Shown: piece by piece, positions 3,392-29,744 of the stretch
Layout: each line of letters opens with the position of its first letter
Numbering within the stretch: the first letter of the stretch is position 1
NCBI RefSeq assembly: GCF_008065095.1
Contig: NZ_CP042911.1
Span: forward strand, 2,970,001-3,002,000
Source: Gemmata obscuriglobus
Lineage (GTDB): Bacteria > Planctomycetota > Planctomycetia > Gemmatales > Gemmataceae
Length of the DNA: 32,000 bases
Reading direction: 5' to 3'
Notes under the pieces: generated by a model
What the model saw: only the letters and a program-made list of their open reading frames with translations
The model's database searches: none
Told to the model about the DNA's origin: nothing
Made by a program: the position numbers and the translations under genes

Positions 3392-5241
3392 GGGTGCATC
3401 CTCTGTCTGGCCTGCCACACCGGAAGCCATATCTCGTCGAACCCCGCGGGCAAAAGGCCTTCGCCCGCGGCCCGCAGGTCTTCAACGAGCTTGGCCACTT
3501 GATCGAGTTTGGTCGGGCTCTGGTCGAGCGCCTTCATCAGCGACTCGAACAGGGGCACACCGCCTGCGCCCCACTGAAAGGGCCCGCTGCCAAGTTCGAA
3601 TTCGTCGGCCGCCGATTCGAGCGGGCCGCCCTCGGCGCCGAACTCCGACAGGAGAAACATGAGAAACCGCAGCACCTGCTCCGGCGTACTGAGGAGCCCC
3701 TTGAGAATACGTTCTTTGCGATCGGACGGCGCGCCCGATAGTGGGACGTTGAGCACGAACCGCAGGCAGGCCGTCTTGCCGGACGATTTGGCGATGACGC
3801 GAAACGCAAAGAACGAAGTGAGCGCGGCGAACGAGAGCGCGTGATACGTCGCGAGTGTGGTGCCGCCGGACGTCGCAACGGCTGTGTGCTCAGGGAGCGT
3901 GATCGGCCACGCGCGAACTTCGGCACCGGAGACGAACGGCGAAAGCGTGCCGCTCTCGGTGCGCAACGCTACATCGAACAGTTCGGCCCCCGCTGCCGAC
4001 GAAACATCCGCGACGAGAGCGAGGCCGCTGATTTCCCGTCGCACCGTTTCGGCTAATTCGTCCAGGCTCTTTTGCTCGGCATCGACGACAGTGGCGTCCA
4101 TACCGGGAGTGAAGGGTTGAAGGAGGTCCGCGAACGAGAGGCCGCCGTCGGTCCGTTTCAGGAATATGTCGATCCCGACGCGGCTCTTCCTGCCCACGAG
4201 CTGCACCAGGAACTCGACGTTGCCGCCAAACGCGGCGCTCGTGGCATTCGCCGATCCGGTAAACACGCTCGCGTTCCACCCGTGCTCGGCGATGTAGAGC
4301 TTTGCGTGAAGCCCGCTCGTCGGGGCGCCGGACGGCGCCTCCTCTTCTTCCTCGAACGCCTCCGCTCGGGCTTCCTCAACCTCGGCCGACGGGTTCAACG
4401 CGTGAACCGCAGTGAAGCCGTCGAGCGCGCCGGCCCCTAGCTCTTGGAGCGAGTCGATTCGAGACACGAGGATCGCGTCGTCGGTGATCTCGGTCACGCG
4501 CTCTAACAGAGGGGGCGACAAAAACGGCGACACGACGAGCACGCGGCTGTACCAGTTGCCGAACGGCCACGACGTCCGGCCTTCGATGCCGAGTGGCCAG
4601 AAGCTGATCTCATCGAAACCGTCGGGCGGCACGAAAGGCACGCGCCTCAGCTCCGCCGCACAGAGTTGAACGCGCTCGGCGGTCTCCGCCGGCAGCGGGA
4701 GCTTGGACATCCCCGGAAGCGCTGCGAAGAAGTCGCCGAGCGGGTGGTTCGCCGCGATCGCGTTCTTGCGGCCCCCCAGTTCGCCTTCGAGAACGAGCGC
4801 CGTGTCCCACGAGCGGTCGAAGGTCAAGTTGCGACTGAGGCACAGGACGCGGTAGCACACCGCGCCGTCGGCAGCCACAAAACGTAGCGCCCACACCTTC
4901 GGGTGAAAACTCGTCACCGGGCCGCGGGCCGCCACCTCGAACACCGAGTTTTCGAGATAGCCGAAGAGGACGCGGTGCTGCTTGGGCACGAGCGTCTGGC
5001 CCGCCTGGCAGAACACCGCGATGCGGTCCGAGTAGCGGCGCAGCGCTTCAAGCGTCGCCAGCGGGTCCGCGCTCGGCCGCCCCTCCGCGTCTTGCCAGTC
5101 GAACATGGTGAACGCGAGCGGCGCGGTCAGCAACGCGACCAGGTCGAGGGAGTAAGTGGTGCCCACGGCGAAGTCGAGCGAGTACCCTTCGGGCGGGCGG
5201 AGCGCGTCGAGCAGCAGGCGGCGGTCGTGTGGTCCGAGCAT
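3388..5241 (-). CDS. Phospholipase D-family (HKD) nuclease-like protein, 617 aa
   Basis: Canonical HKD motif LHAKLYIAEHGWNASVFTGSANATSAAF (HxK...GSxN) plus an N-terminal degenerate copy FHPKVWALRF. The start lies 3 nt after the upstream gene stop, and its own stop overlaps the helicase start. Confidence 0.88.
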   Translation of the reverse strand: MLGPHDRRLLLDALRPPEGYSLDFAVGTTYSLDLVALLTAPLAFTMFDWQDAEGRPSADPLATLEALRRYSDRIAVFCQAGQTLVPKQHRVLFGYLENSVFEVAARGPVTSFHPKVWALRFVAADGAVCYRVLCLSRNLTFDRSWDTALVLEGELGGRKNAIAANHPLGDFFAALPGMSKLPLPAETAERVQLCAAELRRVPFVPPDGFDEISFWPLGIEGRTSWPFGNWYSRVLVVSPFLSPPLLERVTEITDDAILVSRIDSLQELGAGALDGFTAVHALNPSAEVEEARAEAFEEEEEAPSGAPTSGLHAKLYIAEHGWNASVFTGSANATSAAFGGNVEFLVQLVGRKSRVGIDIFLKRTDGGLSFADLLQPFTPGMDATVVDAEQKSLDELAETVRREISGLALVADVSSAAGAELFDVALRTESGTLSPFVSGAEVRAWPITLPEHTAVATSGGTTLATYHALSFAALTSFFAFRVIAKSSGKTACLRFVLNVPLSGAPSDRKERILKGLLSTPEQVLRFLMFLLSEFGAEGGPLESAADEFELGSGPFQWGAGGVPLFESLMKALDQSPTKLDQVAKLVEDLRAAGEGLLPAGFDEIWLPVWQARQRMHP

Positions 5242-5244
5242 CGC

Positions 5245-6432
5245 TCACTCCTCCTCGCAGAGACCCTGGCGAATGTCGCGTAGGATCACCCGCGTCGGCC
5301 CCCACCGAAAATCGAGCGCCCCGGTGCCGGCGGCCCCGTTCCAGAGCTCGAGCGCCCGCTGATTGTCGAGGCGCGAGAGCCCGCGCTTGAGCGCCCGCTC
5401 ACGGGTCGCCACGAGCTGCCGGGCGGCACCGCCTGTAGATTTTTTGCCGTCCCCGTCGAGCGCGAGGCCGAGCCACCCGTCGATGAACATTCGCGTCTGC
5501 GGGCTGACCCGCGCTCCCGCACCGACGACGAGTTGCCAGAATTGCGTCCGGTCCCAATCTCGAAGGGCCGCGCCACGTGCCTCAAGCTGTTCGTGCCACT
5601 CGTTGAGGAGCTTGGCGTACTTTTCCACCAAGTCGTCGGCCGGTTTCTTCTCGGCGAGCATTAGGTTGTAGAGGTAGGCCGCCCCGTGGATGGCCTCAGA
5701 GAAGTTACGGGCGTGCGCGAGAAGCTCCTGGAGCGGGGGAGGGAACTCTTTGGAGAGCGGGTGCGCCCACGGAAAATCGACTTCCGCCTCCGCCCCGTCG
5801 GAATCGACCAAGAAGGCGAGAAGCGATTTGGGCACGCGGGCGAGAACGCGGTCGCGCAGGTACTGGGCCTCGCCGGGAGTCAGCCGAAACGTGATGTTCT
5901 CGGGAAACCCCTCGGGCGCGCCGGGAAGCCCCGCGTGCCAGTTCGGCGCGGCCGGCAGCTCGGCGTCGGCGCGGTCCGCGCGGCGGTAGTAGCCATCGAG
6001 CGAGCGGTGGTACTGGTCGAGAGAACCAGGGAAGAGGCAAACGCCCCACACGCGCAGGCCCTGCCAGTACACGCTGCTCGGCAGCCGCTGCAGAGCTTCC
6101 TTTGCCTGCTTGCCGAGGAGTCCCGACGTGTCGTTGGACTTAAGGAGCGCGAAGATGGTCGCGACCTCGCCCTTTCGTGCGCGGTCGCGCGCCTTGTCGC
6201 TCGGCACCCGCCGGTGTTCGAGGTCGCGGTACACCCACGGCACGAAGAAAAAATACCGAGCGCGGGTCTGGATCGTGCTCGTCCCAGGAAAGAACGCGTC
6301 GGCAAAGGCGTCACGCACCGTTCCGATGCCGAGTTCGTCGCGCGTCTCCTGTTCGCGAAACAGGTCGATCACGTCGAGCATCTGGCGTCGATGCTGTTCG
6401 GAGTAATCGAGCCAAGTGAACGTTGATTGCAT
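5245..6432 (-). CDS. Conserved hypothetical protein, first gene of the PLD/SNF2 operon (395 aa from ATG 6432; GTG alternative at 6453)
   Basis: Long ORF with protein-like composition (FTWLDYSEQHRRQMLDVIDLFREQETRDELGIG..., TRARYFFFVPWVY). It is tightly packed with the PLD gene. I recall similar proteins being catalogued as a DUF (DUF6361?) next to helicase+PLD pairs, unverified. Confidence 0.75.
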   Translation of the reverse strand: MQSTFTWLDYSEQHRRQMLDVIDLFREQETRDELGIGTVRDAFADAFFPGTSTIQTRARYFFFVPWVYRDLEHRRVPSDKARDRARKGEVATIFALLKSNDTSGLLGKQAKEALQRLPSSVYWQGLRVWGVCLFPGSLDQYHRSLDGYYRRADRADAELPAAPNWHAGLPGAPEGFPENITFRLTPGEAQYLRDRVLARVPKSLLAFLVDSDGAEAEVDFPWAHPLSKEFPPPLQELLAHARNFSEAIHGAAYLYNLMLAEKKPADDLVEKYAKLLNEWHEQLEARGAALRDWDRTQFWQLVVGAGARVSPQTRMFIDGWLGLALDGDGKKSTGGAARQLVATRERALKRGLSRLDNQRALELWNGAAGTGALDFRWGPTRVILRDIRQGLCEEE

Positions 6433-6545
6433 AGATACTGTGATCCAGTACACGTCGAACGGCGACGAGGGGTATTACAACAAAAGATACCTACACGCTT
6501 AAGCTTGCGGAATCGACTGAAGGGGAAACCGAACGAAAGTAACGG

Positions 6546-6583
6546 GCGTGACGCCGATCGCAAATTACGCCCCGGCGTCACGC
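6546..6583 (-). terminator. Hairpin terminator candidate downstream of the DUF6527-like gene
   Basis: 11-bp perfect stem gcgtgacgccg/cggcgtcacgc with a 16-nt loop, 9 nt after the stop at 6592. On the minus strand it is followed by CCGTTACTTTCGTTC (moderately U-rich). Confidence 0.45.
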
Positions 6584-6591
6584 TGCGTCGC

Positions 6592-7065
6592 TCAAGTTCC
6601 GAAAATCCATTTCCAGAAGCGTGACCACCGTCCGCGCTTTTTCTCCTCGGGGGCAACAGTCGGCACTTTCTGAGGTTGTGGCACCGGCGGCAGTTGCGGT
6701 GCCGGCTGGACATTCGGCGGTGTCCCGTAGTGTTGCGCTCGTGCGTCCCGGTCACGCTGGCGTCCGGCCTCGATCTGCGTATCGCTCCATGGCGGTGCGG
6801 TGAGCACGCGCCCGTGGTCGATGACGTAGTGCGACCGGCACCGCAGGCTCCAGTTGCCGATCGAGGGCCACAAGGAGACGGTTTCTCCGTCGAACGTCAT
6901 GCGCCACTGCGCAGGGCTTAAAGGCGTCACCACCTCTTCGCCGCAACCGCAGCAGCAGATGTGGGAGGCCGTGCAGAACTCGAGTGCGATGTAGAGCACA
7001 CCGGGCTCGAGTTTTTCGGGCACGTACTGCACGAAGCGGTGTTCGAGTCTCTGGCAGCGCATCAT
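6592..7065 (-). CDS. Cys-rich DUF6527-like protein with a P/Q-rich linker and a Trp-rich basic C-terminal tail
   Basis: Motif EFCTASHICCCGCGEEV plus LRCRSH (putative Zn site). The tail is ...PQLPPVPQPQKVPTVAPEEKKRGRWSRFWKWIFGT. The ATG at 7065 overlaps the E1 stop as ATGA. Family name is from memory. Confidence 0.8.
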   Translation of the reverse strand: MMRCQRLEHRFVQYVPEKLEPGVLYIALEFCTASHICCCGCGEEVVTPLSPAQWRMTFDGETVSLWPSIGNWSLRCRSHYVIDHGRVLTAPPWSDTQIEAGRQRDRDARAQHYGTPPNVQPAPQLPPVPQPQKVPTVAPEEKKRGRWSRFWKWIFGT

Positions 7066-8243
7066 GGGAGGTCACCGTTGATGAGCAGATTGCTTTCGGT
7101 CGTGTAGGTCGAGTGGTGCTCCCGTTCCGCGTCGCGGTAGAACCCGCGGATCTTTTTCCACTTCATCACCGCGAGCGCTGCGTTCATCGCGTTCAGCTCG
7201 ACCACCTGGATGTTCGAGGCGTAGACGTCGTCGGCGCCCCCGCCGACGAACGAAATTCGACCGCCGTGAACGTGGTCGCGTTTTTCGGGCGTGCTCGCCG
7301 TCACCCGCAAGATGCCGCCGAGCATCCCGTCCGCGTCCAGGTCGAGGCCCATCCCCACGTCAACGAACGCGGCCCCGATCTTTTCGAGGTGGCGCACCAC
7401 GCCCCGCTTGTCCTCGCCCGCGTCCATGCTCAAGAACGCGAAGGTGGTACCGTCGAGCAGGTGCACGTTGTCGGCCCGCAGGAACGTCCGGTGCGCGACG
7501 ACCCGGCGGTGCATGCGCGAGTAGATCCCACGAAAATACTCGACCTTCGGGAACACCTCGCGCAGTTCCTCGATCGCCGGCGCGCCAGGGGCGCGAAAGG
7601 CGTTGTGTTGGAGAAACTCGTCGCCGTCGAACAGGCGAATCTCTCTCACCGGTGTCTTAGCGACCAGGTCGAGGACGTACGACCCGGTCCCACCGAGCCC
7701 GACGAGCGACACGGTTTCGTGAGAAAGTTTCTCACTCAGCGCGCCGATGCCGACACGGGCCGATGCGGTGTCCAGATAGTTGAAAACGCCGTCGCGTTCG
7801 TCCTCCGGCGTGCGGAACACGCGCGGGTTTGCGCCCTCTTCGAGCACCGCCGCCGGCCCCGAGATGACCCCCGCGTAGGTCGTCATCTTCTCGTGGTAAT
7901 CGGTGTACCCCGAGTCCCTGGGTTTGCTCGAGAAGTGGTACTTGGCGGTCACCCCGTTCCCGAGGTCATAGTTCCCGCTGCTGTGACCGATGCCCTTGAG
8001 TTCGGTGCCGTCGGCGTTGCAGGGAAACTCCCCGTCAAACCACACCTGGTGCGAGTCCGGCTTTTGGGTGACGTCCCCGGCCAGAGTGAGGCCCGAGACG
8101 AGGGTGCCCCGGCGGACGCACTTTTTGCTGTCCACGTAGGGCACTTCGCGCATCACGAGCAGCGCGCCCCGGATCTCGACGAAGTAGCCTTCGTCTCGAA
8201 GGCTCTTCAAGTCCGGGTTACGAGCGAACAGTTCGCGTGACAT
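7062..8243 (-). CDS. E1-like ThiF/MoeB-family adenylyltransferase with an extra ~170-aa N-terminal domain (393 aa)
   Basis: Rossmann motif LVGLGGTGSYVLDLV, then RLFDGDEFLQHNAFR and LSMDAGEDKR (ThiF/E1 adenylation signatures). AAGGGAG lies 8 nt upstream of ATG 8243; the ORF is open to 8282. Confidence 0.85.
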   Translation of the reverse strand: MSRELFARNPDLKSLRDEGYFVEIRGALLVMREVPYVDSKKCVRRGTLVSGLTLAGDVTQKPDSHQVWFDGEFPCNADGTELKGIGHSSGNYDLGNGVTAKYHFSSKPRDSGYTDYHEKMTTYAGVISGPAAVLEEGANPRVFRTPEDERDGVFNYLDTASARVGIGALSEKLSHETVSLVGLGGTGSYVLDLVAKTPVREIRLFDGDEFLQHNAFRAPGAPAIEELREVFPKVEYFRGIYSRMHRRVVAHRTFLRADNVHLLDGTTFAFLSMDAGEDKRGVVRHLEKIGAAFVDVGMGLDLDADGMLGGILRVTASTPEKRDHVHGGRISFVGGGADDVYASNIQVVELNAMNAALAVMKWKKIRGFYRDAEREHHSTYTTESNLLINGDLP

Positions 8244-8940
8244 TGAACCGACTCCCTTTTTTGATTTGAACCGATCCGCCACGGCCGAGTTCCCCGACGG
8301 GCGGCGTCGAAGCGGCGTGGGTGTAGTTCATGGAGAATTCGACGTTCGGGTCGTGGTCGCCCGGGAACGCGAGCTGAACGATCTGCTCGTAGGTCACCGT
8401 GTTCCCGGTAACGGTCTTGGGCCGGCCGTTGACGAAGATCTCGAACGTGGGCACCGGGCGCGGTCCGGTCACGAAGCGCTCGACACCGGCGCCCGCGAGA
8501 TCGACGATGTCACCGGGCTCGATCAGCCGGTCTTGGCCCCCGCGGGCGTCGAGGAACACGGCCTGGCCCGGCCCCACGTTCGCGAGCGTGTACAGAACCG
8601 AGCCGAGCAGGTTCTGCACGCCCCAACTGATCGCGCGCCCGTCGAGCGTGAACCGGTAGACGCGGTCGGTCTTGAACGCGACGAACCGTTCGACGCCCTT
8701 GCCGCGAAGGTCGAAGAGCTCGTCGAGCCGCACGTCTTCGAAGTCGCCGCTCGGCAGGATGGCGAAGAGGCTGTAGTCGTCCACCGGCGCGTACCCCGCG
8801 GACGCGAGGAGTTGGCGTCCGAGCGGCACCGGGTCGGTCGTGGTGTGCGGGCGAAAGTTGAGCGTCTCGTCGCTCACCGCGAACCGGTAAGCGCTCGCCG
8901 CCTTGACCTTCTCGCCGCCGGATTCAGTTGCGTCGTTCAT
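8218..8940 (-). CDS. Multiubiquitin-type protein with three tandem beta-grasp-like repeats (240 aa)
   Basis: Internal repeats are visible: YRFAVSDETL...LRGKGVERFVAF / YRFTLDGRAI...LAGAGVERFVTG / FEIFVNGRPKTVTGNTVTYEQIVQLAF...GSVQIKKGSRFNVTRT. This matches my memory of Pfam Multiubiq. GGAG lies 8 nt upstream of ATG 8940. The 90 codons further upstream in the ORF overlap the terminator and the neighbouring gene end. Confidence 0.8.
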   Translation of the reverse strand: MNDATESGGEKVKAASAYRFAVSDETLNFRPHTTTDPVPLGRQLLASAGYAPVDDYSLFAILPSGDFEDVRLDELFDLRGKGVERFVAFKTDRVYRFTLDGRAISWGVQNLLGSVLYTLANVGPGQAVFLDARGGQDRLIEPGDIVDLAGAGVERFVTGPRPVPTFEIFVNGRPKTVTGNTVTYEQIVQLAFPGDHDPNVEFSMNYTHAASTPPVGELGRGGSVQIKKGSRFNVTRTVRS

Positions 8941-9082
8941 GTGCGTAACTCCGTTGTTAAGTCCGGGTACCATCGCCCGCGGTGTCGTTGCAGCCCCTCG
9001 TCGGGCCTCTACTTCTCTTGAACCGCGGGCGTCTCGAATCCGGCAGTCGGATTTGAAAAAAGATGTGACGGGCTCGATCGGG

Positions 9083-9114
9083 CCAAAAACAAAAGCGGGG
9101 GCATTTGCCCCCGC
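9083..9114 (-). terminator. Rho-independent terminator of the helicase-nuclease operon
   Basis: On the minus strand gcgggggc-aaat-gcccccgc (8-bp GC stem) is followed directly by TTTTGTTTTTGG, 35 nt after the stop at 9149. Confidence 0.75.
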
Positions 9115-9148
9115 CTGTGTGAAAGAACGGTTGTGTGCCCGAATGCAA

Positions 9149-12100
9149 TCAGAGTGGTGCGCCGTGCGAAGGGCATACGAAGTAGTAAGCGCAGTTCGGG
9201 CAGTCGTCACTTTCTTTGGGGTCGAACGCGCCGGTCGCCACCGCGCGCACCACGTCCTCGATCACCGTGAGCGACTTGGAGAGTTTCTTGGTCTCGACCT
9301 TGGACCGCTGGCGCTCGGTTGTGAGCAGCGACACGTGCTCGAAAACGATCTCCTGCCCGGGGTGAGCGTTCCCCACGGCTACCTGCCACAGGGTGTAGCG
9401 AAGTTTTTCCGTCTCTTTCTTGGCGAGCCGACTCGTTTTCAGTCTGCGGATGACGACCCCCGCGCTCGTCGCTTCGATGTGATCGGCGCGGCAGTTGACC
9501 ACGGCACCGGTCTCCGGGAGCGTGACGGTTCGGTCGACCGGAAGCGCTTGCCCGTCCATCACCGCCAACGCGTTCGCGATCATTTTGTCCGCGATGCCGC
9601 GGTAGAACGGCTCGAACGCGTGCCCCTGCGGGCCGTGCTCGCTCCAGTCGAGTTCGAACTGCGCGCGGATTCCCGCGCTGCGCTCGGCCGCTTGCGGGAC
9701 GCTCCGCAGCCAGGCGAGGCTCGCGTGCAGCGCCGACTGGAACTGCAAGTACGGACCTTCTTCGTCGCGGGCGTTGAGCGCCAGCGCGTGGTCGTAGTAG
9801 TAGCGGCGCGGGCACTCGTCGTACGTTTCGATCGCGTAGTACGACCACGCGCCCGTCACCGCGGCGGCCGCGAGCCGCGGGCGGCCCTTTGCCTGGTGGC
9901 CGAGGTTCTTCCACCCCGCCGCGGCGTCCACCGCCTTCGGGAGGTGAGCGGTAACATGTTCGAGAAACGACGACGGCCCCCGCTTAACCGCTCCGTTCGT
10001 CTCCGAGCGCGAGAGGTGCAGCACGTCCTTCGCGCGGGACATGCCGACGAAGAACAAGCTCTCCTCTTCAGCCGTTGCCGTCAAGAGGTCGTCTGCCGCG
10101 ATCATTCCGGCCGGCGGCGGGCACGGGTCGGACCGGTTCCCGAGCGGGAAAATCGTCTTCGCCAGCGACACGAGGTGGACGACGGGAAATTCGAGGCCCT
10201 TGCTCGCGTGCACCGTCATCAGGCGCACTGCGTCGATGTCGCCGGCCGCTGCGGGGAGCTGCCGGAGTTGCTTCTCCTCGTCGAGAATCGTGAGCCGGCG
10301 CACGTGATTGAGGAACGCGTGCTTGGGGTCCTCTTTCTCCGGCGGCTTGAACGCGAACGCGAACTGAAGCAGTTGGTACACGGCGAGCCGGCGCTGCTGG
10401 TCTTGAACCGTGTTACCCGCGAGGAGCAGGCGCACGTGCTCTCCAGAGCCGAACAGGTACTCGGTGAGAAACCGGTGCGGGGAAACCGTCCACGACCAGT
10501 GCCTCGTGTCGAAGACGAGGAGCTTGATTCCGGCGCGACCGACGTCCGTGAGGTCGCAGATTTCGTCCGCCCGCCGAAGCGCCGAGAGCATGGAGATTGC
10601 CTGCTCGCGGCGCCACTCGACTACCTTGATGATGTCCGCGGGAGGGACCGCGTACTGCGGCATTTGCGCGACCCGCAAAAGTCCCACCCCGCGCTTCTCG
10701 GAAACGACGGACAGGAGCGAGAGCAGGTCGCGCACCTCGGGCCGCTCGAAGAAGTCTCCGAAGTAGAGGCACGGCACGCCGGACCGTTCGAGGTGCCCGG
10801 CCAGTCGCGCGAGGGTTGTGTGCGAGCGGGCGAGGACGACCTGGTGGCGAAAGGGCACCCCGTCACTCTGGCGCTTCTTGATCGCCTGCGCAATTCCCTC
10901 GGCTTCCGCCTCTCTTGACACCGCCACGTCGTACAGAACGTTCCCGTTGGTTTCGCCCCGGTGGGCCGTCAACCCGGAATTGGGGGCGAGGGGCGCGGCA
11001 GTCATTTTCTGCCCGAACGCCTCGAATGCGCGCACGATCTTGCCGCCGGAGCGGTAGTTGACGGTGAGGTCGGTGACGGCGGCGCCGGGAAAATCTTGCT
11101 CGAACCGCGACATGTTGAGCGGCGACGCGCCGCGGAAGCGGTAGATCGCCTGGCGCACGTCGCCGACGACCCAAGGACCAGCTTTCGGGGTAACAATCTC
11201 CTTGAGAAAATGGGCACTGGCCCGGTTCATGTCCTGGTACTCGTCAACCAGGATGTGGCGGTACTGATCGCGAACCGCGTCCCGAACCTCCGGGTGTGCG
11301 CGGAGCAGTTCGACGGGGCGCGCCACCAGGTCGCCGAAATCGACGCGCCACTGCGAGCGGAGTTCGCGCTCGTAGACGCTGTACACGTTTGCGACCTCGA
11401 GTGCTTTTTCGGCCCTGGTGATCGCGTCGGGATCGCTCGCGGATGCGAGCATGGCGTGGGCCAACTCGCCGTACCGCTCGGGGGTGACGAGGTCGTCTTT
11501 GGCGCGCCCGATGGCGTTCAGAATGTCTTTGAGCGCCCGCGCGGGCTCGTACAAGTCGAGGTAGTGGTTCAGCGGCAGTTGGGGTAGCAGTTGTTCGAGG
11601 AACATCAGCGAGTCGGTGCGGTCGAGCAGCTTCGGCGGCCCCTCCATGCCGAGCACATGGCCGTGTTTGCGCAGAAGCTCCAGCCCGAACGCGTGGAACG
11701 TGCCGGACCACACCGCCGTCGCCTTGTCACCCACCGCCGCGCGAATGCGGGCGGCCAGATCCTTCGCCGAGAGATTGGAGTAGGTGAGTGCGAGGATCGA
11801 ACCCGCGGGAACGTTTCGGGCTCTGAGCAGGTGGACGACTCGGCCCACGAGCGTCCGCGTTTTTCCCGTCCCGGGGCCGGCCCGCACTTGGCGCGGGCCG
11901 TCGCCCGCCTCGATCGCTGTGCGCTGGCTCGCGTCCGGCTCGTCGGCGTCGCTCGCCCGCGTCTCTTCGGCGCCGCCGTGCTCTTCAGGTAGCAGCGCCA
12001 CGTCGGTCATCTGGTGCAGCACCAGGTCGACGGGGACGCCGAGTTCCGTCGCGAGCGCGCCCGCGTCGAATTGTCCGTGTTCGCACCGACGGCGGAGCTT

Positions 12101-12532
12101 CTCGCGGGGAACGAGAAACTCGCGGGCGAACACGTTCGCCTGGGCCTCGGACCGCTCTTTGGGGCTGTACGAGTCGGCGTCGCCGACGACCGAAGGGGCG
12201 GGCTCCGCCGCGGTCAGCATGTCGAGATCGTTGCAGTCACAGCGCGCGACTACCGCCCCGAGCCAGTGGTGCCCGTACTCGTGGGCGACGTAGAATCGCG
12301 CCAGCGGCTCGGCGTGTTCGCGCGAGTAGTAAATCTTCTTCTTCTCGCTGTGGTAACACGCTTCGCCGCCGTCGAGCAGCGCGTCGCCCTTGGGTCGCGA
12401 GTGCCGGGTTACGCCGGTCGCTCGTTCGGCAGCGTCGAGCAAGGCCGCGGCGGGAACCAATTCGTCGGTGGTTCCGAACAGGTCGGCATGCCGTGCGGCG
12501 GCGAGGCGCCGAACTTCATTCCACGCGCTCAT
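9149..12532 (-). CDS. Fusion protein: ImmA/IrrE-type (M78) metalloprotease + UvrD/PcrA-like SF1 helicase + Cas4/AddB-like PD-(D/E)XK domain with a Fe-S cysteine signature (1127 aa)
   Basis: N-terminus: HEYGHHW (HExxH) and EAQANVFAREFLVP. Helicase: AGPGTGKT, ILVDEYQDMN, VGDVRQAIYRFRGA, VNYRSG, TVHASKGLEFPVV, ESLFFVGMSRAKD. C-terminus: ECPRRYYYD plus CPNCAYYFVC (C-x2-C-x5-C). The ATG overlaps the upstream stop as ATGA. Confidence 0.9.
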   Translation of the reverse strand: MSAWNEVRRLAAARHADLFGTTDELVPAAALLDAAERATGVTRHSRPKGDALLDGGEACYHSEKKKIYYSREHAEPLARFYVAHEYGHHWLGAVVARCDCNDLDMLTAAEPAPSVVGDADSYSPKERSEAQANVFAREFLVPREKLRRRCEHGQFDAGALATELGVPVDLVLHQMTDVALLPEEHGGAEETRASDADEPDASQRTAIEAGDGPRQVRAGPGTGKTRTLVGRVVHLLRARNVPAGSILALTYSNLSAKDLAARIRAAVGDKATAVWSGTFHAFGLELLRKHGHVLGMEGPPKLLDRTDSLMFLEQLLPQLPLNHYLDLYEPARALKDILNAIGRAKDDLVTPERYGELAHAMLASASDPDAITRAEKALEVANVYSVYERELRSQWRVDFGDLVARPVELLRAHPEVRDAVRDQYRHILVDEYQDMNRASAHFLKEIVTPKAGPWVVGDVRQAIYRFRGASPLNMSRFEQDFPGAAVTDLTVNYRSGGKIVRAFEAFGQKMTAAPLAPNSGLTAHRGETNGNVLYDVAVSREAEAEGIAQAIKKRQSDGVPFRHQVVLARSHTTLARLAGHLERSGVPCLYFGDFFERPEVRDLLSLLSVVSEKRGVGLLRVAQMPQYAVPPADIIKVVEWRREQAISMLSALRRADEICDLTDVGRAGIKLLVFDTRHWSWTVSPHRFLTEYLFGSGEHVRLLLAGNTVQDQQRRLAVYQLLQFAFAFKPPEKEDPKHAFLNHVRRLTILDEEKQLRQLPAAAGDIDAVRLMTVHASKGLEFPVVHLVSLAKTIFPLGNRSDPCPPPAGMIAADDLLTATAEEESLFFVGMSRAKDVLHLSRSETNGAVKRGPSSFLEHVTAHLPKAVDAAAGWKNLGHQAKGRPRLAAAAVTGAWSYYAIETYDECPRRYYYDHALALNARDEEGPYLQFQSALHASLAWLRSVPQAAERSAGIRAQFELDWSEHGPQGHAFEPFYRGIADKMIANALAVMDGQALPVDRTVTLPETGAVVNCRADHIEATSAGVVIRRLKTSRLAKKETEKLRYTLWQVAVGNAHPGQEIVFEHVSLLTTERQRSKVETKKLSKSLTVIEDVVRAVATGAFDPKESDDCPNCAYYFVCPSHGAPL

Positions 12533-13158
12533 CGATTCCCTCCCGTTATTTGCTCTTGGTTCACGATCTCAACCCACCGGGCCTTCAAGTCCTCTGGCAG
12601 GTCGGAGGAATCGACGGCGGCGAGAAAGTCTTCGGTCGGAACGGTCGGCTTGTTTTTGGCCTTATTCGCGACCGCGCCGATGGGCTCGCCGGTGAACATG
12701 GCCCGAACCGCGTCGATGGTGAAGTCGAGCGCTGCTGCTGCCAACTCATGCAGTTTCTGCGGAATACCGGAGGGGATTCGCCGTAAATCGAGCTTGTCGA
12801 CGAGCGATTCGTCGAGGTCGCACTTCTTCGCGAACTCTCGGTCGGTGAGGCCGCGCGATTTGATCGCTTGGCTCAGTCTGCTCGGGGCCGCCGCCGGTAG
12901 AGTGGCAGCGGCCGGTTGGCCCGCGAGAAAGTCGAGCGCCTTACTCAGCATGCGATCGCCGGCTCGAGCCTCGTCCACAGTCACTTGTTCTCTGGACGTT
13001 TCTTGCAGAGCCCACGTCGCGAAGAAGCGACTGAGCGCTTCGCGGTGTTTCGGATACTGGGCGGTCCAGCGCACGAGGGCCTCGTGAGTTGGCTTCTCTT
13101 CCTCAAGCATAATTTCGTCGACAACGTCTTCGAATGTGTGGGGGGAGTGGGTGCTCAT
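12529..13158 (-). CDS. XRE-like HTH protein (ImmR-like partner candidate), 209 aa from the coupled ATG
   Basis: HTH-like segment LSQAIKSRGLTDREFAKKCDLDESLVDKL. The ATG at 13158 overlaps the sigma gene stop as ATGA, and its own stop overlaps the protease-helicase ATG as ATGA. Confidence 0.65.
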   Translation of the reverse strand: MSTHSPHTFEDVVDEIMLEEEKPTHEALVRWTAQYPKHREALSRFFATWALQETSREQVTVDEARAGDRMLSKALDFLAGQPAAATLPAAAPSRLSQAIKSRGLTDREFAKKCDLDESLVDKLDLRRIPSGIPQKLHELAAAALDFTIDAVRAMFTGEPIGAVANKAKNKPTVPTEDFLAAVDSSDLPEDLKARWVEIVNQEQITGGNR

Positions 13159-13925
13159 AAATTTTCTCCTATCCTCGCTCGCACCTGGCTCATCGCAGTG
13201 CGTAGCCAGGTGTTGATTTGGCGCTCCTTGACATCGAAGTGTCGGCACAGCGTGGCAACGTTCGGATCACTCGGGTCGATCGGCCAGTTGTACCCGTATC
13301 GAAGGACGAACGCCTCGCGATGTCGCGGGTCAGTGATGGCGTCGAGGCCCTCGAACAAGATCATCAAATCGTCGGGCGGGAGTGCTGGATCGGCGACGAC
13401 TACCCCCACGTCTTCTTCTGTTACTGTGTCTGCGATTCGAACTTCAGAGTACTCGTTGGCGCGCGCGAAGTGCGCCTCGACCGCGTTGAGCGCGAGGCCA
13501 CGGGCGACTTTGCGAAACGACACTTCGAGGAATTCGCCCTTACGGGTCGGTGCAGATTCAAAGACCAAGCTGACGATTCGACCCTGAATGCTGTCGATGA
13601 GGTCGTCCCGCGCCTGGTTCCCGACACCACGCGAATTGTCACTGACAATTCGAGCAACGCGCCGGCCCAGTTCCCGTACCAATGCGCTAAACTCCGGCAT
13701 AGTTCGGGAATTTTCCCGCCACTTCCGGAGAAGGTGCACAATGGTTTCACTTCGAAAATGAGGAATGTCCCACACGGGCGGGTCCACCCCGTGCGCTTGG
13801 CGAATCTGCTCACGCACCTCCGACTTGCGCACGTAACGCCTACCGTCCCGCGTTCCGAGCGTCAGCGCGGCGGGACAATTTGGATCGTGATTCGCCGTCG
13901 TGGCGTGGGTCGTTGATTCGCTCAT
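13155..13925 (-). CDS. Sigma-70/ECF-like transcription factor (256 aa)
   Basis: Region-4-like segment LFEGLDAITDPRHREAFVLRYGYNWPI...ATLCRHFDVKERQINTWLRTAMSQVRARI. Region-2-like segment ALVRELGRRVARIV...DDLIDSIQGRIVSLVF. First gene of the three-gene operon. Confidence 0.55.
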   Translation of the reverse strand: MSESTTHATTANHDPNCPAALTLGTRDGRRYVRKSEVREQIRQAHGVDPPVWDIPHFRSETIVHLLRKWRENSRTMPEFSALVRELGRRVARIVSDNSRGVGNQARDDLIDSIQGRIVSLVFESAPTRKGEFLEVSFRKVARGLALNAVEAHFARANEYSEVRIADTVTEEDVGVVVADPALPPDDLMILFEGLDAITDPRHREAFVLRYGYNWPIDPSDPNVATLCRHFDVKERQINTWLRTAMSQVRARIGENL

Positions 13926-14027
13926 ACCCCTCTCGAACCGGGTTGTCTGCGAAACCGGCAGTCAATTCGCAAAGATTTTTTTCACCCCCGTGCCGGCTGG
14001 TCCGGCGAGCCGAGCCACGATAACGCT

Positions 14028-14035
14028 CAAATTTA
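14028..14035. repeat. Left target-site duplication of the IS1595-family element (CAAATTTA)
   Basis: Identical 8-mer at 14867-14874, immediately outside the terminal inverted repeats. Confidence 0.9.
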
Positions 14036-14866
14036 GGTGATTAGCAAAATTCTAGGGCAGCAAGTAGTCTGTTCCTATGACCCTCGAAGAGTATGAGCGG
14101 CACTTGGTCGGGCAACTCTGTTGGCGGTGCCACCAGGCCACACACCAGAATTCGGCCCGGCAGCGGCAGTGCCCCAGTTGCCGGGCCAAGTGGAGCTATC
14201 ACCGGCGCAAGACGGAGTGGGAGCTGCTCCGGGCGTTCGCCTTGAGTACCACGGCCCACCACGCGGCTCGGGTGGTCCGGTGCAGCTACCCAACGGCCTA
14301 CGCCGCGTACACGCGGTTCCGCCTCACCCTCCAGGCCATGACCGACGAGGAGAAGCGCCCGCTGCTCGGGGCACTGGAACGGGACGAGTCGTACTTCGGG
14401 GGCAAGCGGAAAGGCAAGCGGGGCCGCGGGGCGGGCGGGAAAGTGCCCGTGTTCGGCATCCTGGAGCGGGCCGGGCGGGTGTACACGGTGGCCGTCCCGA
14501 ACTGTAGCAAGGAGACCCTGATGGCCAAGATCCAGGCCGCAACGGTCAAGGGGAGCGTGTTCTACACGGACGAGTTCGCCAGCTACAACGACGTCCAGAG
14601 CCACGGCAAGCACGTCCCGATCAACCACCAGGAAACATTCGGGGTGGGGGCCGCGCACATCAACGGGATCGAGGGGTTCTGGAGCTACGCGAAGCGGCTG
14701 TACCGGCACGTCCACGGGGTCGAGCCGGGGAACTTCCCGCTGTACCTGGCTGAGTATGAATTCCGGTACAACCACCGCGGCGAGCACCTGATGACCCTCC
14801 TGTATAACCGCCTAATCCGGGCCGCCGCCCCAACCCAAACCCAGCCCTAGAATTTTGCTAATCACC
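14036..14866 (+). mobile_element. IS1595-family insertion sequence (831 bp), apparently intact
   Basis: Perfect 23-bp terminal inverted repeats GGTGATTAGCAAAATTCTAGGGC (14036-14058; reverse complement at 14844-14866), 8-bp direct repeats, and a single transposase ORF. Confidence 0.92.
14077..14850 (+). CDS. IS1595-family (ISXO2-like) DDE transposase with an N-terminal Zn-ribbon
   Basis: CWRCHQ...CPSCRA Zn-ribbon. DESYFGGKRKGKRGRGAGGKVPVFGILER, FYTDEFASYN, INGIEGFWSYAKRL and EYEFRYNHR are typical of this family. Confidence 0.9.
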   Translation: MTLEEYERHLVGQLCWRCHQATHQNSARQRQCPSCRAKWSYHRRKTEWELLRAFALSTTAHHAARVVRCSYPTAYAAYTRFRLTLQAMTDEEKRPLLGALERDESYFGGKRKGKRGRGAGGKVPVFGILERAGRVYTVAVPNCSKETLMAKIQAATVKGSVFYTDEFASYNDVQSHGKHVPINHQETFGVGAAHINGIEGFWSYAKRLYRHVHGVEPGNFPLYLAEYEFRYNHRGEHLMTLLYNRLIRAAAPTQTQP

Positions 14867-15241: not shown

Positions 15242-17932
15242 ATGATTGCTTTGGATAGGGATGTGCTCCGGGTGATGGTGGTACGCAGCAGCAAGGGAGC
15301 GAAACAGTATTACAGCGCGGGAGATTACTACAGCGCAGGCCAAGAGCTGCCCGGCGAGTGGGGCGGAATCGGGGCCGCGCACCTTGGACTCACGGGCACC
15401 GTCGAGCGTGGTGAATTTGCTCGCATGTGCGACAACTTCCATCCACGCACCGGTCAGCGGTTTACTCTGCGAACCAATGTTTCGCGCCGCGTCGCCTTCG
15501 ATCTGAACTGGCACGTCCCCAAAAGCCTCTCGGTGCTGTTCGGTCTCACTCAATCGGCCGAGTTACTCGCAGCATTCCGGCAGGCGGTCGAAGAAACGAT
15601 GCGAGAGCTTGAGCTTCGTGCCCAGACCCGGGTTCGGATCAAAGGCGCGAACCAAGTGCGCACCACCGGGAACCTGACCTGGGCGAGTTACGTGCACACG
15701 ACCGCACGACCGGTCGGCGGAGTTCCCGACCCGCATCTGCACTGCCATGCCGTCGTCTTCAACGCCACTTTCGATCCGATCGAGGGGCGCTGGAAGGCAC
15801 TCGACCTGTGCCAGGTCAAACGGGCCGCGCCGTACTTCGAGGCGACCTTCCACGCCCGTCTCGCGGCAAAATTGCGACACCTCGGTTACGACACGGTCCG
15901 CACCAGTAAGGGCTGGGAACTTGCGGGCGTTCCGCGTCGCGTGCTCGAAGAGTTTTCACGCCGAACGAAGCTGATCGAGCGGGTAGCCGAAGAGCAGGAG
16001 ATCACCAACGCTCACGCCAAGGACGCGATCGGAGCTCTGACCCGCGAGCGCAAAAGCACCGCGCTTTCGCTTTCGAAGTTGCGTGCGCGCTGGCGCGCTC
16101 GCATCACCGGCGACGAACTGCGGGCCCTCGAACTGGTCGCTGCCAAAGCCCTCGACCGTCCCCCTCGAAATCTCAACGCGGTCCGAGACGCTCTGCACTA
16201 TGCCGTCGAGCACTGCTTCGAACGCGAGTCGGCCGTGTCGGTCGACCGGTTGCTCGCGGTTGCACTCCGTCGCGGCGTGGGCGAGGTCGCGGTTAATGAG
16301 ATCCGCGCGGCGTTTAAGGGTCTGGGGCTTCTCGTGCAGGAGCGAGACGGCGTGGAATACGCGACCGCGCGTGAGGTGCTCGCTGAAGAAATCCGCATGC
16401 TGGCATTCGCCCGAGACGGGCGCGGCATATGTGCCCGCTTGGTTCCGAACCATTCGCCAATCGCGCGCGAGTGGTTATCGAATGAGCAAAAAGCGGCCGT
16501 GGCCCATGTGCTCGGATCACATGACCGGGTGACGCTGTTACGCGGTGCGGCCGGCGTCGGGAAAACGGCCCTCATGATTGAGGCCGTCGAAGCGATCGAA
16601 AAATCCGGGACACGAGTTATTCCCTTGGCACCATCAGCCGCAGCGAGTCGCGGCGTCCTTCGCGCCGAAGGCTTTTCCTCGGCCGACACGGTGGCGCGGT
16701 TTCTCGTCGACGCCGAATTCCAGGAACGTGCCCGTGGGCACGTTATCTGGGTTGATGAGGCGGGACTTCTGGGCACTGTGGCGCTTGCCGCTCTGTTTGA
16801 TACTGCTGGGCGACTCGACGCGCGGGTGGTATTGGTCGGTGATACCCGCCAGCACTCTGGCGTCGCTCGTGGGACCGCACTTAAGCTCCTCGAGTGTGAG
16901 GCCGGACTAGCCCCGTTCGCGGTTACCGGTATTCGCCGCCAGCACGGTCGATACCGTGAAGCGGTCGGGTTGCTGAGCGAGGGACGGGCCGTCGACGCGC
17001 TCGACGTCCTCGACAGACTCGGATGGGTGCGCGAGTGTGATCACGAGGCTGGCGCGCAGTTGATCGCGGCTGAATATCTACTCGCACATCGTGAGGGAAA
17101 ATCCGTTCTGGTGGTGTCACCGACGCATGCCGAGGGTGAGCGCGTCACCCGAACGATCCGCACCGAGCTCCTATCCGCACAGGTGCTGAGCGGGGAGCCG
17201 CGATTCTTTCCGCAGTTGGTTGCAGCAAATTTCACGATCGCAGAGCGGAGCGACGCAGCGAACTACGAGCCCGGAATGGTGCTCCAGTTTTTCCGTCATG
17301 CCCCGGGATTTCGAAGCGCGTCTCGGTGGGTGGTCGTATCGGCCGCACCCAATGTCTTGCGGGTTCAGGATGCCAGCGGCGATGACGCTCTGCTTCCGCT
17401 TCACTTCGCTAACCGGTTTCAGGTTTTCGAGTCGCGCGAACTCGAACTCCGGATCGGGGACCGTGTGCGTTTGACCAGCAACGAGAGAACCCGCGACGGA
17501 CACCGGCTCGACAACGGGGCTCACGGTGTGGTGAAGCGGTTCACCTCCAACGGGGATATTCAGCTCGAGTCGGGGGCTGTGGTGCCGTACGACGTTGGGC
17601 ACGTGGCGCACGGCTACTGCGTCACTTCGCACGCGTCACAGGGTAGAACCGTCGATCAGGTGCTCGTCTCCCAAAGCGCCGAGTCGTTTGCCGCATCCTC
17701 CGTCGAGCAGTTGTACGTGTCCGTGTCACGCGGCCGCGAGCGCGTGCTGCTCATCACCGACGATAAGGCCGGGCTGCGACTGGCCGCCGAACGCTCGGAC
17801 CCGCGGCCGGCGGCGACCGAAATATTTGCCCCCTCGGCGCTCTGGCGCTCGTGGGCCCAGAGGCGCATCGTACGGGAGCCACAACCGAATAAACGAGCGC
17901 GAGGGGTGGCGGAGGTTTTAGTCGGGCGATGA
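15242..17932 (+). CDS. MobF/TrwC-type conjugative relaxase fused to a RecD/TraA-like SF1 helicase (896 aa; possible later start at 15275)
   Basis: N-terminus AKQYYSAGDYYSAGQELPGEWGGIGAAHLGLTG (catalytic Tyr pairs) and His triad DPHLHCHAVVFN. Helicase part LLRGAAGVGKT, VIWVDEAGLL, GYCVTSHASQGRTVDQVLV. Confidence 0.92.
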   Translation: MIALDRDVLRVMVVRSSKGAKQYYSAGDYYSAGQELPGEWGGIGAAHLGLTGTVERGEFARMCDNFHPRTGQRFTLRTNVSRRVAFDLNWHVPKSLSVLFGLTQSAELLAAFRQAVEETMRELELRAQTRVRIKGANQVRTTGNLTWASYVHTTARPVGGVPDPHLHCHAVVFNATFDPIEGRWKALDLCQVKRAAPYFEATFHARLAAKLRHLGYDTVRTSKGWELAGVPRRVLEEFSRRTKLIERVAEEQEITNAHAKDAIGALTRERKSTALSLSKLRARWRARITGDELRALELVAAKALDRPPRNLNAVRDALHYAVEHCFERESAVSVDRLLAVALRRGVGEVAVNEIRAAFKGLGLLVQERDGVEYATAREVLAEEIRMLAFARDGRGICARLVPNHSPIAREWLSNEQKAAVAHVLGSHDRVTLLRGAAGVGKTALMIEAVEAIEKSGTRVIPLAPSAAASRGVLRAEGFSSADTVARFLVDAEFQERARGHVIWVDEAGLLGTVALAALFDTAGRLDARVVLVGDTRQHSGVARGTALKLLECEAGLAPFAVTGIRRQHGRYREAVGLLSEGRAVDALDVLDRLGWVRECDHEAGAQLIAAEYLLAHREGKSVLVVSPTHAEGERVTRTIRTELLSAQVLSGEPRFFPQLVAANFTIAERSDAANYEPGMVLQFFRHAPGFRSASRWVVVSAAPNVLRVQDASGDDALLPLHFANRFQVFESRELELRIGDRVRLTSNERTRDGHRLDNGAHGVVKRFTSNGDIQLESGAVVPYDVGHVAHGYCVTSHASQGRTVDQVLVSQSAESFAASSVEQLYVSVSRGRERVLLITDDKAGLRLAAERSDPRPAATEIFAPSALWRSWAQRRIVREPQPNKRARGVAEVLVGR

Positions 17933-19080: not shown

Positions 19081-20034
19081 TTACGGCAACGCTAATTCAA
19101 AAGCCCGTTGCTTGAGCCGCGCCCCGCTGCCGAACCACGCCGAATCGAGTCGACTATCTGCGTCTTTAACGCCGCGCGTGTGGTCGACCCAGTCGGTGAT
19201 CGCGTTGTAGGCCCCCCAGTACGTTCCGAAGACGCCATTTATCCGCGCACCGGGAGCCGCGTGGTAGGCCCATTGCAAGGTGTCCCACGCCTTTGGCATT
19301 TTACCCATGCGTTGAACCGATTCGGGCACCTCCAGCACATCGATGACGTATTTGCGAAACCCGTCGACGGGCAACCGCCGCGACACCATGCGTTGATAGT
19401 CGGCGAGCGAGGCCGAAAAAGTCTTCGCCGCCATGTCGATGGTGTGTTGCACCAGAACGAGACTCGTTTCAAGGCCGGTGGTGTGCCGCACGCGTACGCA
19501 GTCCTCGAATCCGCGTTCGGCCCGCCGGTCGGCAGCGTTCAGCGTGTTCGCACACACCACGCGGATGCTGGTAAACTGCGCCCGTACTGCTTGGCTCGCG
19601 TCATGTGCGTTGGAGAGCAGGAAATACCCGCGCACCGGATCACCGTCGACGACTTCGGCCTCGGCTCCATTAATTCGAGCGAGGACCCAAATCCGCTTTC
19701 CTTCTTTGAGTGAGCCGGCCGCTTCGAGCGAGCACGCGCCGGCTGATAGAAACGGCTCGAAGAACGAGAACGCCCGATCGTTCTGCATGAGGGTGTAACC
19801 GCTTCCGACGACCCCTATTACTTTCCCATCTGATTCGCGAACGGTCGCACGGTGCGTCGGCACCGGACAGCCGGCCTCGGTAAATAGCGGCACCATTCGC
19901 ACCCGCCAGTCGAGCCCCGCGAGACGGATCGCGTCTTCGACGTTGGGCGCCTCGTGGAGCGTAACGCCGAGACGGTGCCAAGCCGGTTGACGGACGAAAA
20001 AACCTGATTCAAACTCGTGTGTCATATTCCTCAT
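19081..20034 (-). CDS. DUF932-family phage/plasmid-like protein (317 aa; alternative ATG at 20025)
   Basis: N-terminus MTHEFESGFFVRQPAWHRLGVTL and the overall length match my memory of DUF932/TIGR03299 proteins of conjugative elements. Confidence 0.75.
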   Translation of the reverse strand: MRNMTHEFESGFFVRQPAWHRLGVTLHEAPNVEDAIRLAGLDWRVRMVPLFTEAGCPVPTHRATVRESDGKVIGVVGSGYTLMQNDRAFSFFEPFLSAGACSLEAAGSLKEGKRIWVLARINGAEAEVVDGDPVRGYFLLSNAHDASQAVRAQFTSIRVVCANTLNAADRRAERGFEDCVRVRHTTGLETSLVLVQHTIDMAAKTFSASLADYQRMVSRRLPVDGFRKYVIDVLEVPESVQRMGKMPKAWDTLQWAYHAAPGARINGVFGTYWGAYNAITDWVDHTRGVKDADSRLDSAWFGSGARLKQRAFELALP

Positions 20035-26627: not shown

Positions 26628-26651
26628 GGCACTCCTTTGCCACCGACAGCG

Positions 26652-29740: not shown

Positions 29741-29744
29741 CCAA
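29741..29744. repeat. Right 4-bp target-site duplication (CCAA)
   Basis: Matches 28667-28670. Confidence 0.7.

Follow-up and report, generated by a model that had tools for sequence, protein, structure and literature searches.

A sigma factor, a CapH-like protein and a protease-helicase fusion beside a Type II Bub operon in Gemmata obscuriglobus: a candidate switch for bacterial ubiquitin-like systems

The DNA considered here is a window of 32,000 nucleotides (nt) from Gemmata obscuriglobus (Planctomycetota; RefSeq assembly GCF_008065095.1, contig NZ_CP042911.1, positions 2,970,001 to 3,002,000), in which an original prediction, made from the letters alone, had singled out a three-gene cassette as a possible signal-gated helicase-nuclease. 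All three open reading frames claimed for positions 9149-13925 are present there on the minus strand: gene A (13155-13925), which encodes a 256-residue protein resembling sigma factors of the extracytoplasmic function (ECF) type; gene B (12529-13158), which encodes a CapH-like XRE helix-turn-helix (HTH) protein of 209 residues counted from the ATG; and a fusion gene (9149-12532), the 1127-residue product of which consists of an M78 protease followed by a UvrD helicase and a Cas4/AddB-like iron-sulphur (Fe-S) domain. Genes A and B overlap by ATGA at 13158-13155, the ATG of gene B overlapping the stop codon of gene A, and gene B overlaps the fusion gene in the same way at 12532-12529; since three genes share two junctions, the three ATGA junctions counted earlier are in fact only two. 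The fusion gene is followed by an intrinsic terminator at 9083-9116 (minus strand; GGCGGGGGC-AAAT-GCCCCCGC, then TTTTGTTTTT), which deserves the word textbook that had been used for it: the stem at 9116-9093 has 10 pairs, 8 of them G-C, with a loop of 4 nt, the T-tract TTGTTTTT comes next, and within 6400-14200 this is by far the best terminator-like site.

Beyond the terminator lie three further genes of the minus strand. The first (8218-8940) encodes BubA, a ubiquitin-like protein (Ubl; PF14452, E = 9.8e-57) with three stretches that match the Multiubiquitin profile. The second (7062-8282) encodes BubBD, in which DUF6791 and a ThiF E1 adenylation domain make up the E2-E1 fusion of Type II Bub (PF20590, E = 2.4e-57; PF00899; NF004802, E = 1.7e-201), and the third (6592-7065), joined to it by one more ATGA overlap at 7065-7062, encodes BubE (DUF6527; PF20137, E = 2.6e-23). 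Multi_ubiq, DUF6791 with ThiF, and PF20137, standing in this order at 8940-6592, are the Type II Bub operon as it was defined by the Corbett laboratory (PMC11601596). The true unit is consequently larger than the range first marked out: it runs from 13961 to 6592 and takes in, besides the cassette and the terminator behind it, a second promoter-like site and the Bub operon.

The same arrangement recurs in related loci, which were collected from genomes, by exact-protein look-ups and by a metagenome scan with a family-specific motif, and annotated with hidden Markov models built from seeds. When genome contigs were scanned with the full-length alignment, generic UvrD motifs were picked and only 6 of 80 loci were true members of the family; the metagenome contigs were then scanned with a family-specific sub-alignment. 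In the 69 related loci with at least 1.5 kb of sequence downstream of the fusion gene, the cargo is bilABCD on the same strand in 56, bilABCD in inverted orientation in 2 (L150 and L155, where it converges on the cassette), Bub in 6 and neither in 5. A Ubl operon is thus found downstream in 64/69 loci and on the same strand in 62/69, and of the 54 loci with room for them upstream, 51 carry both gene A and gene B. These counts agree with independent gene calls. The cassette can no longer be read as self-contained, with a Bil or Bub operon behind it in nearly all of these loci, and its architecture is not specific to one lineage; the idea of a signal-gated system with a role in defence holds. 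When the fusion proteins are placed in a neighbour-joining tree, those with Bub cargo fall into three distinct clades that lie among Bil-linked ones, and this scatter indicates that the cassette is a module that has recombined with different Ubl operons.

The five loci that lack a Ubl operon are heterogeneous. In three of them there is, respectively, a fusion gene truncated by an insertion sequence (IS), a set of genes downstream resembling those of type IV secretion systems (T4SS; locus L135), and a set of metabolic genes downstream. In L144 (5626-10463) the fusion gene is followed by a DUF7226 protein and a 1192-residue SNF2 helicase with a NOV_C domain, and in L119 (13653-14273) a high-scoring copy of the promoter-like motif described below lies about 1.9 kb past the fusion gene, directly before a YbjN-like gene. 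Systems unrelated to ubiquitin may thus occasionally come under the control of the cassette.

The cassette and the Ubl operon are each preceded by a bipartite motif, which may be summarised as TTCCGG, about 16 nt, and GGTTGA or CGCTT. Before gene A (13926-13961, minus strand) box 1 is CTGCCGG at 13961-13955 and box 2 is CGGTTCGA at 13940-13933; before the Bub operon (9004-9046, minus strand) box 1 is CTGCCGG at 9046-9040, box 2 is CGGTTCAA at 9025-9018, and a GTAGAGG box at 9012-9006 contains the predicted start at about 9010. The offset from box 1 to box 2 is 21 nt at both sites. The motif was found by Gibbs sampling on intergenic stretches from which the coding parts had been trimmed, an untrimmed run having picked the ribosome-binding site and start of bilA instead. 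In about 50 non-redundant loci the stretch between the fusion gene and the Ubl operon carries it in a directional form with three boxes: box 1 is aTTTCCGGTTTT, box 2 begins 21-22 nt after the start of box 1 and exists in two lineage 'dialects', CGGTTGA and TCGCTT, and a TAGAGG-like box stands about 8 nt beyond. The motif precedes the Ubl start codon by 54-105 nt, with two exceptions at 124 and 277 nt.

With a weight matrix built from the Ubl-side sites alone, same-strand matches were obtained between -300 and +40 relative to the gene A start in 30/58 loci, an enrichment of about 300-fold over the 9 matches found elsewhere in 1.89 Mb (0.0016 expected per region of this size). One of these nine, a high-scoring match on the reverse strand of L150, stands beside the start of the inverted bilA and fits a motif that travels with the Bil operon, while another is located ahead of a displaced Bil operon. 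Moreover, the two sites co-vary, agreeing in their dialect and also in peculiarities of the lineage: the variants present at gene A and at the Ubl operon of the same locus form 29 concordant pairs against 1 discordant. Within 6400-14200 no sigma-70 consensus promoter was found. The simplest reading of these sequence patterns is that the motif would be a promoter recognised by the sigma factor encoded at the locus itself, both at its own operon, as autoregulation, and at the Ubl operon. At gene A the ATG comes 7 nt after box 2, and the same pattern is seen across the clade to which the window belongs; this spacing predicts a transcript of gene A that is probably leaderless.

The domain structure of the fusion protein was expected to comprise a protease, a helicase and an Fe-S domain, and Pfam supports all three assignments: Peptidase_M78 (PF06114) at residues 58-175 (E = 8e-12), UvrD-helicase (PF00580) at 201-482 (E = 7e-62), UvrD_C (PF13361) at 732-844 (whole-protein E = 4e-32) and PDDEXK_1 (PF12705) at 896-1121 (E = 6e-15). 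Nor is the fusion confined to one genome, an outcome that had been named as damaging to the idea, for the same set of Pfam domains is shared by over 120 full-length homologues of about 1110-1130 residues and 48-91% identity, a few of them lacking one precomputed match. Their hosts belong to Planctomycetota, Acidobacteriota and Alphaproteobacteria, to which the related loci add Chloroflexi and Gammaproteobacteria, and 76 plasmids carry a full-length copy, annotated there only as a UvrD-like helicase. In the databases the fusion proteins are labelled merely 'UvrD-helicase domain-containing protein' or 'hypothetical protein'. The conservation of individual residues was assessed in 20 close homologues and, separately, in a set of 50 sequences made up of 49 diverse homologues (28-49% identity) and the protein of the window. 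In both sets the catalytic residues of HEYGHH, those of the Walker motifs and the four Fe-S cysteines either do not vary or deviate in a single sequence.

The N-terminal part (residues 1-185; 11978-12532, minus strand; PF06114) is a zinc protease of the M78 family, similar to CapP and IrrE, with an HTH-like linker. Its site HEYGHH provides the HExxH motif (H84, E85 and H88), and E129 is the third zinc ligand; the zinc ligands H84, H88 and E129 are present in 50/50 sequences and the catalytic E85 in 49/50. When a profile of residues 1-195 was compared with the PDB, CapP (7t5t) was the best match (E = 6.5e-4) and IrrE (3dte) the next. In both CapP and IrrE a peptidase domain is followed by an HTH-like linker and then by a GAF domain, and in CapP a 'cysteine switch', C113, fills the zinc site, the protease being inactive until single-stranded DNA (ssDNA) binds (Lau et al. 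2022). An internal cysteine-switch loop is present in 33% of the CapP proteins of CBASS systems (Lau et al. 2022). In our alignment with CapP, C98 of the fusion falls on C113 and E129 on the zinc ligand E129, and C98 is kept in all 20 close homologues and in 33/50 sequences of the distant set. No GAF domain was matched in the fusion, and past residue 185 or so the chain enters the UvrD helicase directly, so that, at the level of sequence, the GAF sensor of CapP is replaced by a helicase and a nuclease-like domain.

The helicase (residues 196-865; 9938-11947, minus strand; PF00580 and PF13361) is a complete superfamily 1A (SF1A) enzyme of the UvrD/PcrA type, with GPGTGKT (219-225) as Walker A and DEYQD (430-434) as Walker B. 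The residues checked (G221, K224, T225, D430, E431 and Q433) are invariant apart from a single change of K224 to R. The PcrA model TIGR01073 is matched with E = 5.6e-91, yet at 306 bits against an equivalog cut-off of 911, and on this score the helicase does not qualify as an equivalog of PcrA, UvrD or Rep. The fusion matches GajB models as well (E = 1.4e-66), but it is flanked by gene B and BubA, with no OLD/TOPRIM GajA adjacent, and the locus is not a Gabija system.

The C-terminal domain (residues 885-1127; 9149-9880, minus strand; PF12705) has the PD-(D/E)xK fold type of Cas4 and AddB. Its Fe-S cysteines, C907, C1111, C1114 and C1120 (C...CxxCxxxxxC), are found in 50/50 sequences. The acidic residue of the (D/E)xK motif had been described as not obvious, and this caveat proved correct for the whole family. 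In the fusion the motif region reads D1017 ... R1030-L-K1032 in place of a canonical (D/E)xK; at the acidic position of motif III there is R in 40, Q in 3 and K in 3 of the 50 sequences and neither D nor E among the 48 residues tabulated, at the lysine position R in 26 and K in 14, and the glutamate of motif I is not conserved. A profile of the domain had no match among PDB sequences, and the active-site assignment rests on the ranges of the Pfam and TIGR matches and on motif reasoning. Given that the nuclease motif is lost across the homologues, the domain is very probably devoid of nuclease activity in the entire family. A phmmer search with this domain alone gave 425 clusters at 50% identity, in which every full-length match has about 1110-1200 residues with the domain at the C-terminus, the shorter matches looking like fragments. 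In AddB the Fe-S domain is required for the binding of DNA ends, and by analogy an end-sensing role may be suggested for this domain.

Gene A had been called an ECF-like sigma factor, and its predicted structure is in line with this. The AlphaFold2 model (pLDDT 79) shows sigma2 and sigma4 domains preceded by an N-terminal extension of about 35-55 residues before the first predicted helices, and when it was compared with the PDB by Foldseek each of the 50 best matches listed was a sigma factor, alone or in complex with an anti-sigma factor. Most belong to the ECF type, among them E. coli sigmaE (1or7), ECF sigma factors of Mycobacterium tuberculosis, SigW and AlgU. Fitted separately, the sigma2 domain matches 4lup (TMt 0.61) and the sigma4 domain 3hug (TMt 0.70). 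Sequence models give a much fainter signal: TIGR02937 is matched weakly (E = 0.0066, under its cut-off), Pfam at E <= 0.01 assigns no family to the product of gene A or of gene B, and for neither of them does anything in Pfam, NCBIfam or PADLOC reach a curated cut-off. Over 71% of its length the product shows 100% identity to an NCBI 'sigma-70 family RNA polymerase sigma factor' of Gemmata, which in the public annotation begins at a later start and has 181 residues. The deposited start codon is probably wrong, since all 256 residues are conserved in homologues and only 7 nt lie between the motif and the upstream ATG.

The product of gene B, identical (100%, full length) to GobsT_25380, had been proposed as an XRE-like candidate substrate of the adjacent protease, and its predicted fold agrees with such an assignment. 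The model comprises a four-helix N-terminal domain (residues 9-79) with a near-invariant Y35-P36 pair ('RYPQ' in the consensus), an XRE HTH domain of five helices (95-155) and C-terminal helices (175-207). Foldseek relates it to SinR (3zkc, TMt 0.74-0.77), DdrO (6rnz, 0.70), the N-terminal domain of CapH (7t5u, 0.76, root-mean-square deviation 1.7) and C.BclI. A profile of 22 diverse homologues finds XRE HTH proteins of the PDB at residues 95-165 with sub-threshold E-values, and the capH model of PADLOC is likewise matched below threshold (E = 0.0046). The presumed recognition helix of the XRE domain (residues 117-124, DESLVDKL) is hydrophobic or acidic in most homologues and is without the usual polar and basic residues. 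From this atypical helix it might be supposed that B binds a protein, for example the sigma factor, and not DNA.

Taken together, these features lead us to the interpretation, in which we have moderate confidence, that the cassette is a sensor-switch of the CapH/CapP type controlling the downstream Bub operon and, elsewhere, Bil operons. Regulation would run from the cassette to its cargo, with the sigma factor A recognising the bipartite promoter before its own operon and before the Ubl operon. At rest, gene B would restrain the system, whether by binding A in the manner of an anti-sigma factor or by repressing the promoters, and the cysteine switch would keep the CapP-like protease of the fusion inactive. 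The helicase and the dead Fe-S domain would then engage DNA, probably ssDNA or DNA ends, and release the protease; we propose this kind of signal because ssDNA activates CapP and because the Fe-S domain of AddB takes part in end binding. Such DNA could arise from phage replication, from restriction of phage DNA or from DNA damage. The freed protease would cleave B, and the sigma factor, now active, would amplify its own operon and turn on the genes for the Ubl, the E2-E1 protein and BubE. In this complete form, as a fourth and so far undescribed family of Cap controllers of immune operons in which a helicase and a dead Fe-S domain act as the sensor, the protease cleaves the CapH-like B and the freed sigma factor drives Bil or Bub in a self-amplifying manner, the proposal is tentative, and each of its biochemical steps is to be taken as a suggestion.

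The original prediction did not recognise the combination as a named system. This view stands as far as the fusion is concerned, which is apparently undescribed, and does not stand for the pair of protease and HTH protein, which is a recognisable relative of CapH/CapP in view of the matches to CapP 7t5t and CapH 7t5u. The likeness extends to the M78 HExxH protease with its cysteine-switch residue and HTH-like linker, to the adjacent XRE-HTH protein, to the link with Bil and Bub and, in some cases, to the sigma factor. According to the Corbett laboratory, CapH and CapP adjoin Bub operons in 168 of 544 cases and Bil-type operons in 25 of 162, and a sigma factor of the sigma-70 family is found beside capH and capP in 24 CBASS systems (Lau et al. 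2022). The differences are equally clear: the GAF domain of CapP is exchanged for about 930 residues of UvrD helicase and dead Fe-S nuclease-like domain, and gene B has, in comparison with CapH, an additional four-helix N-terminal domain of 80 residues. In searches of full-text literature, supplementary tables being outside their scope, we did not find a description of an M78-UvrD-PD-(D/E)xK fusion, and the word 'helicase' is absent from the main text of the papers cited here on Cap regulators. Some of the cassette loci may already have been counted as 'CapH+CapP' in published supplementary tables. The cassette is apparently a widespread and so far undescribed variant of CapH/CapP, in which two published features, the GAF domain and the divergent orientation, fail, and to which a sensor module and a pair of sigma factor and promoter have been added.

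Other regulators share single elements with the cassette. IrrE/DdrO of Deinococcus and ImmA/ImmR of ICEBs1 and phages also combine a COG2856/M78 protease with an XRE partner, and their protease cleaves the repressor after DNA damage; they are, however, without a helicase, a nuclease-like domain or a sigma factor, and their targets are repair or mobile-element genes. The pairs sigmaE-RseA and SigW-RsiW resemble the cassette in the order of a sigma gene and a coupled partner, in the motif at the sigma operon and in a protease as the proposed trigger. They differ from it in that the partner B is a cytoplasmic protein of the XRE fold and not a membrane anti-sigma factor, its anti-sigma role being putative, and in that the protease is cytoplasmic, CapP-like and fused to a helicase. 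AddAB/RecBCD and Cas4 are comparable to the fusion in an SF1 UvrD-like motor and a C-terminal PD-(D/E)xK fold with C...CxxCxxxxxC; in the cassette these are parts of a single polypeptide with RxK/R as motif III and a protease at its N-terminus. The idea of an AddAB-like repair enzyme was rejected on account of the single chain, the dead nuclease, the mobile and defence contexts and the protease part. Finally, CapK with CapS, a third pair of regulators that has been described, and CapW/BrxR are likewise upstream controllers of Bub and Bil, responding to ssDNA or DNA damage. Their biochemistry is unrelated to that of the cassette, CapK and CapS being a kinase and a STAS protein with a winged HTH and CapW/BrxR a WYL-HTH protein.

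Several points weigh against a CapH/CapP-type switch. The canonical place of capH and capP is upstream of the regulated operon and divergent from it (Corbett laboratory), whereas our cassette reads in the same direction as its cargo, with a terminator and a promoter-like motif of the cargo's own between the two. CapH and CapP serve CBASS, Bil, Bub, DISARM and other systems, whereas the cassette is almost solely associated with Ubl operons, a near-exclusive linkage that could mean a functional partnership going beyond pure regulation. The related loci were chosen by similarity of the fusion protein, and some of them are near-duplicates. For gene B the model has a pLDDT of only 66, and at the level of sequence the resemblance to XRE and CapH stays below threshold. 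The motif could alternatively be an operator for gene B and not a promoter for sigma A. Lastly, a whole ATP-driven helicase is a costly sensor.

The linkage just mentioned is the main argument for regarding the fusion as a working partner of the Ubl pathway, instead of or in addition to a transcriptional regulator, either as a helicase that loads on invading DNA and recruits or licenses conjugation or as a protease that processes, for example, a Ubl precursor. The known Cap regulators serve many types of systems, whereas this cassette stands with Bil or Bub in 64 of the 69 loci; Type II Bub is typically without a JAB peptidase (PMC11601596), so that a protease might be needed; and the helicase is fully conserved. 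Such a partnership appears unlikely to us, since Bil systems possess a JAB peptidase of their own and still carry the cassette, and since published Bil operons mediate conjugation of the Ubl to targets and phage protection with no helicase mentioned (PMC11601596 included). Neither the sigma factor nor the motif that co-varies at two sites would have a role in a purely enzymatic partnership, and the pairing of a CapP-like protease with a CapH-like HTH protein, together with the terminator between cassette and operon, speaks for the regulatory switch.

In the form closest to the original prediction, the fusion would be a stand-alone, signal-gated helicase-nuclease that degrades foreign DNA after the protease has removed an inhibitor, and its Bub neighbour would reflect nothing but clustering in a defence island. 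The helicase does score strongly on models of GajB and other defence helicases, the C-terminal domain is a PD-(D/E)xK family member with the Fe-S cluster signature, and the window is indeed a defence island with Azaca, AbiE and a prokaryotic Argonaute (pAgo). An effector of this kind is nevertheless improbable in our opinion, because its catalytic motif is missing family-wide: Arg, Gln or Lys takes the place of the motif III acidic residue in 46/50 sequences, and the acidic residue of motif I is unconserved. Besides, a Ubl operon at fixed distance and orientation in 62/69 loci is far above island co-occurrence, and the GajA/OLD partner is not adjacent. The possibility that the cassette serves the mobile element around it as a switch of the ImmR/ImmA type, triggering excision or transfer of an integrative and conjugative element or plasmid upon DNA damage, draws on the control of prophage and ICE induction by ImmA-family proteases, on the TrwC relaxase and IS elements near the cassette and on the 76 plasmids with a full-length homologue, but it is very improbable, given that the conserved neighbour is the Ubl operon and not an integrase, a relaxase or transfer genes, that T4SS-like genes lie downstream in L135 only, and that the motif occurs at the cassette and the Ubl operon with just 9 matches elsewhere in 1.89 Mb.

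From the point of view of a regulatory switch, the cassette may be of interest for the biology of Bil and Bub, bacterial relatives of the eukaryotic ubiquitin and ISG15 conjugation systems. It would constitute a testable input for these operons in hundreds of lineages, as well as on many rhizobial plasmids, with a sigma factor, a motif, a candidate substrate and a DNA-engaging sensor. For Bub a phage-protection phenotype has not yet been demonstrated, and inducing Bub through the cassette may reveal the conditions under which it acts. On the side of the sensor, it appears that CapP, a protease responsive to ssDNA, can have its GAF domain swapped for an entire helicase module, and the Cas4/AddB-like Fe-S domain, which is conserved although its catalytic residues are missing, is a clear case of a repurposed nuclease fold.

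The cassette and the Bub operon are surrounded by other defence and mobile-element genes. Directly downstream of BubE lies Azaca (131-6453, minus strand), with three full-length matches: ZacA (5245-6453, minus strand, E = 4.5e-139), ZacB (3388-5241, minus strand, E = 5.8e-177) and ZacC (131-3430, minus strand, 1146 bits). By Pfam these genes give only DUF6361, a weak PLD domain and DEAD/Helicase_C. At the other end of the window a class II prokaryotic Argonaute (27983-31390) is apparently split by an insertion, its N-terminal part (27983-28726) corresponding to pAgo_II positions 2-203 and its C-terminal part (29834-31390) to positions 235-724, with a DDE transposase reading frame (28678-29697, minus strand) between the halves. 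An AbiEi/AbiEii toxin-antitoxin pair of the abortive-infection type occupies 25758-27266 on the minus strand (AbiEii, E = 4.8e-83; AbiEi, E = 3.1e-65), and AbiE pairs flank the cassette in the related loci L081 and L082 too.

On the side of gene A, about 115 nt separate its motif, which is intact, from the start of an IS1595-family transposase gene (14077-14850) upstream, and a TrwC/MobF relaxase is encoded beyond that gene at 15242-17932. The presence of a relaxase and a transposase beside the cassette indicates that the island is part of a conjugative or mobilisable element. Further along, a DUF932 protein and a 2-oxoglutarate-Fe(II) (2OG-Fe(II)) oxygenase are encoded at 19081-20034 and 24893-25666. 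L081, a close relative of the island, likewise has a gene for a 2OG-Fe(II) oxygenase, along with DUF6573 and RadC, a likeness that suggests a shared conjugative-element backbone.

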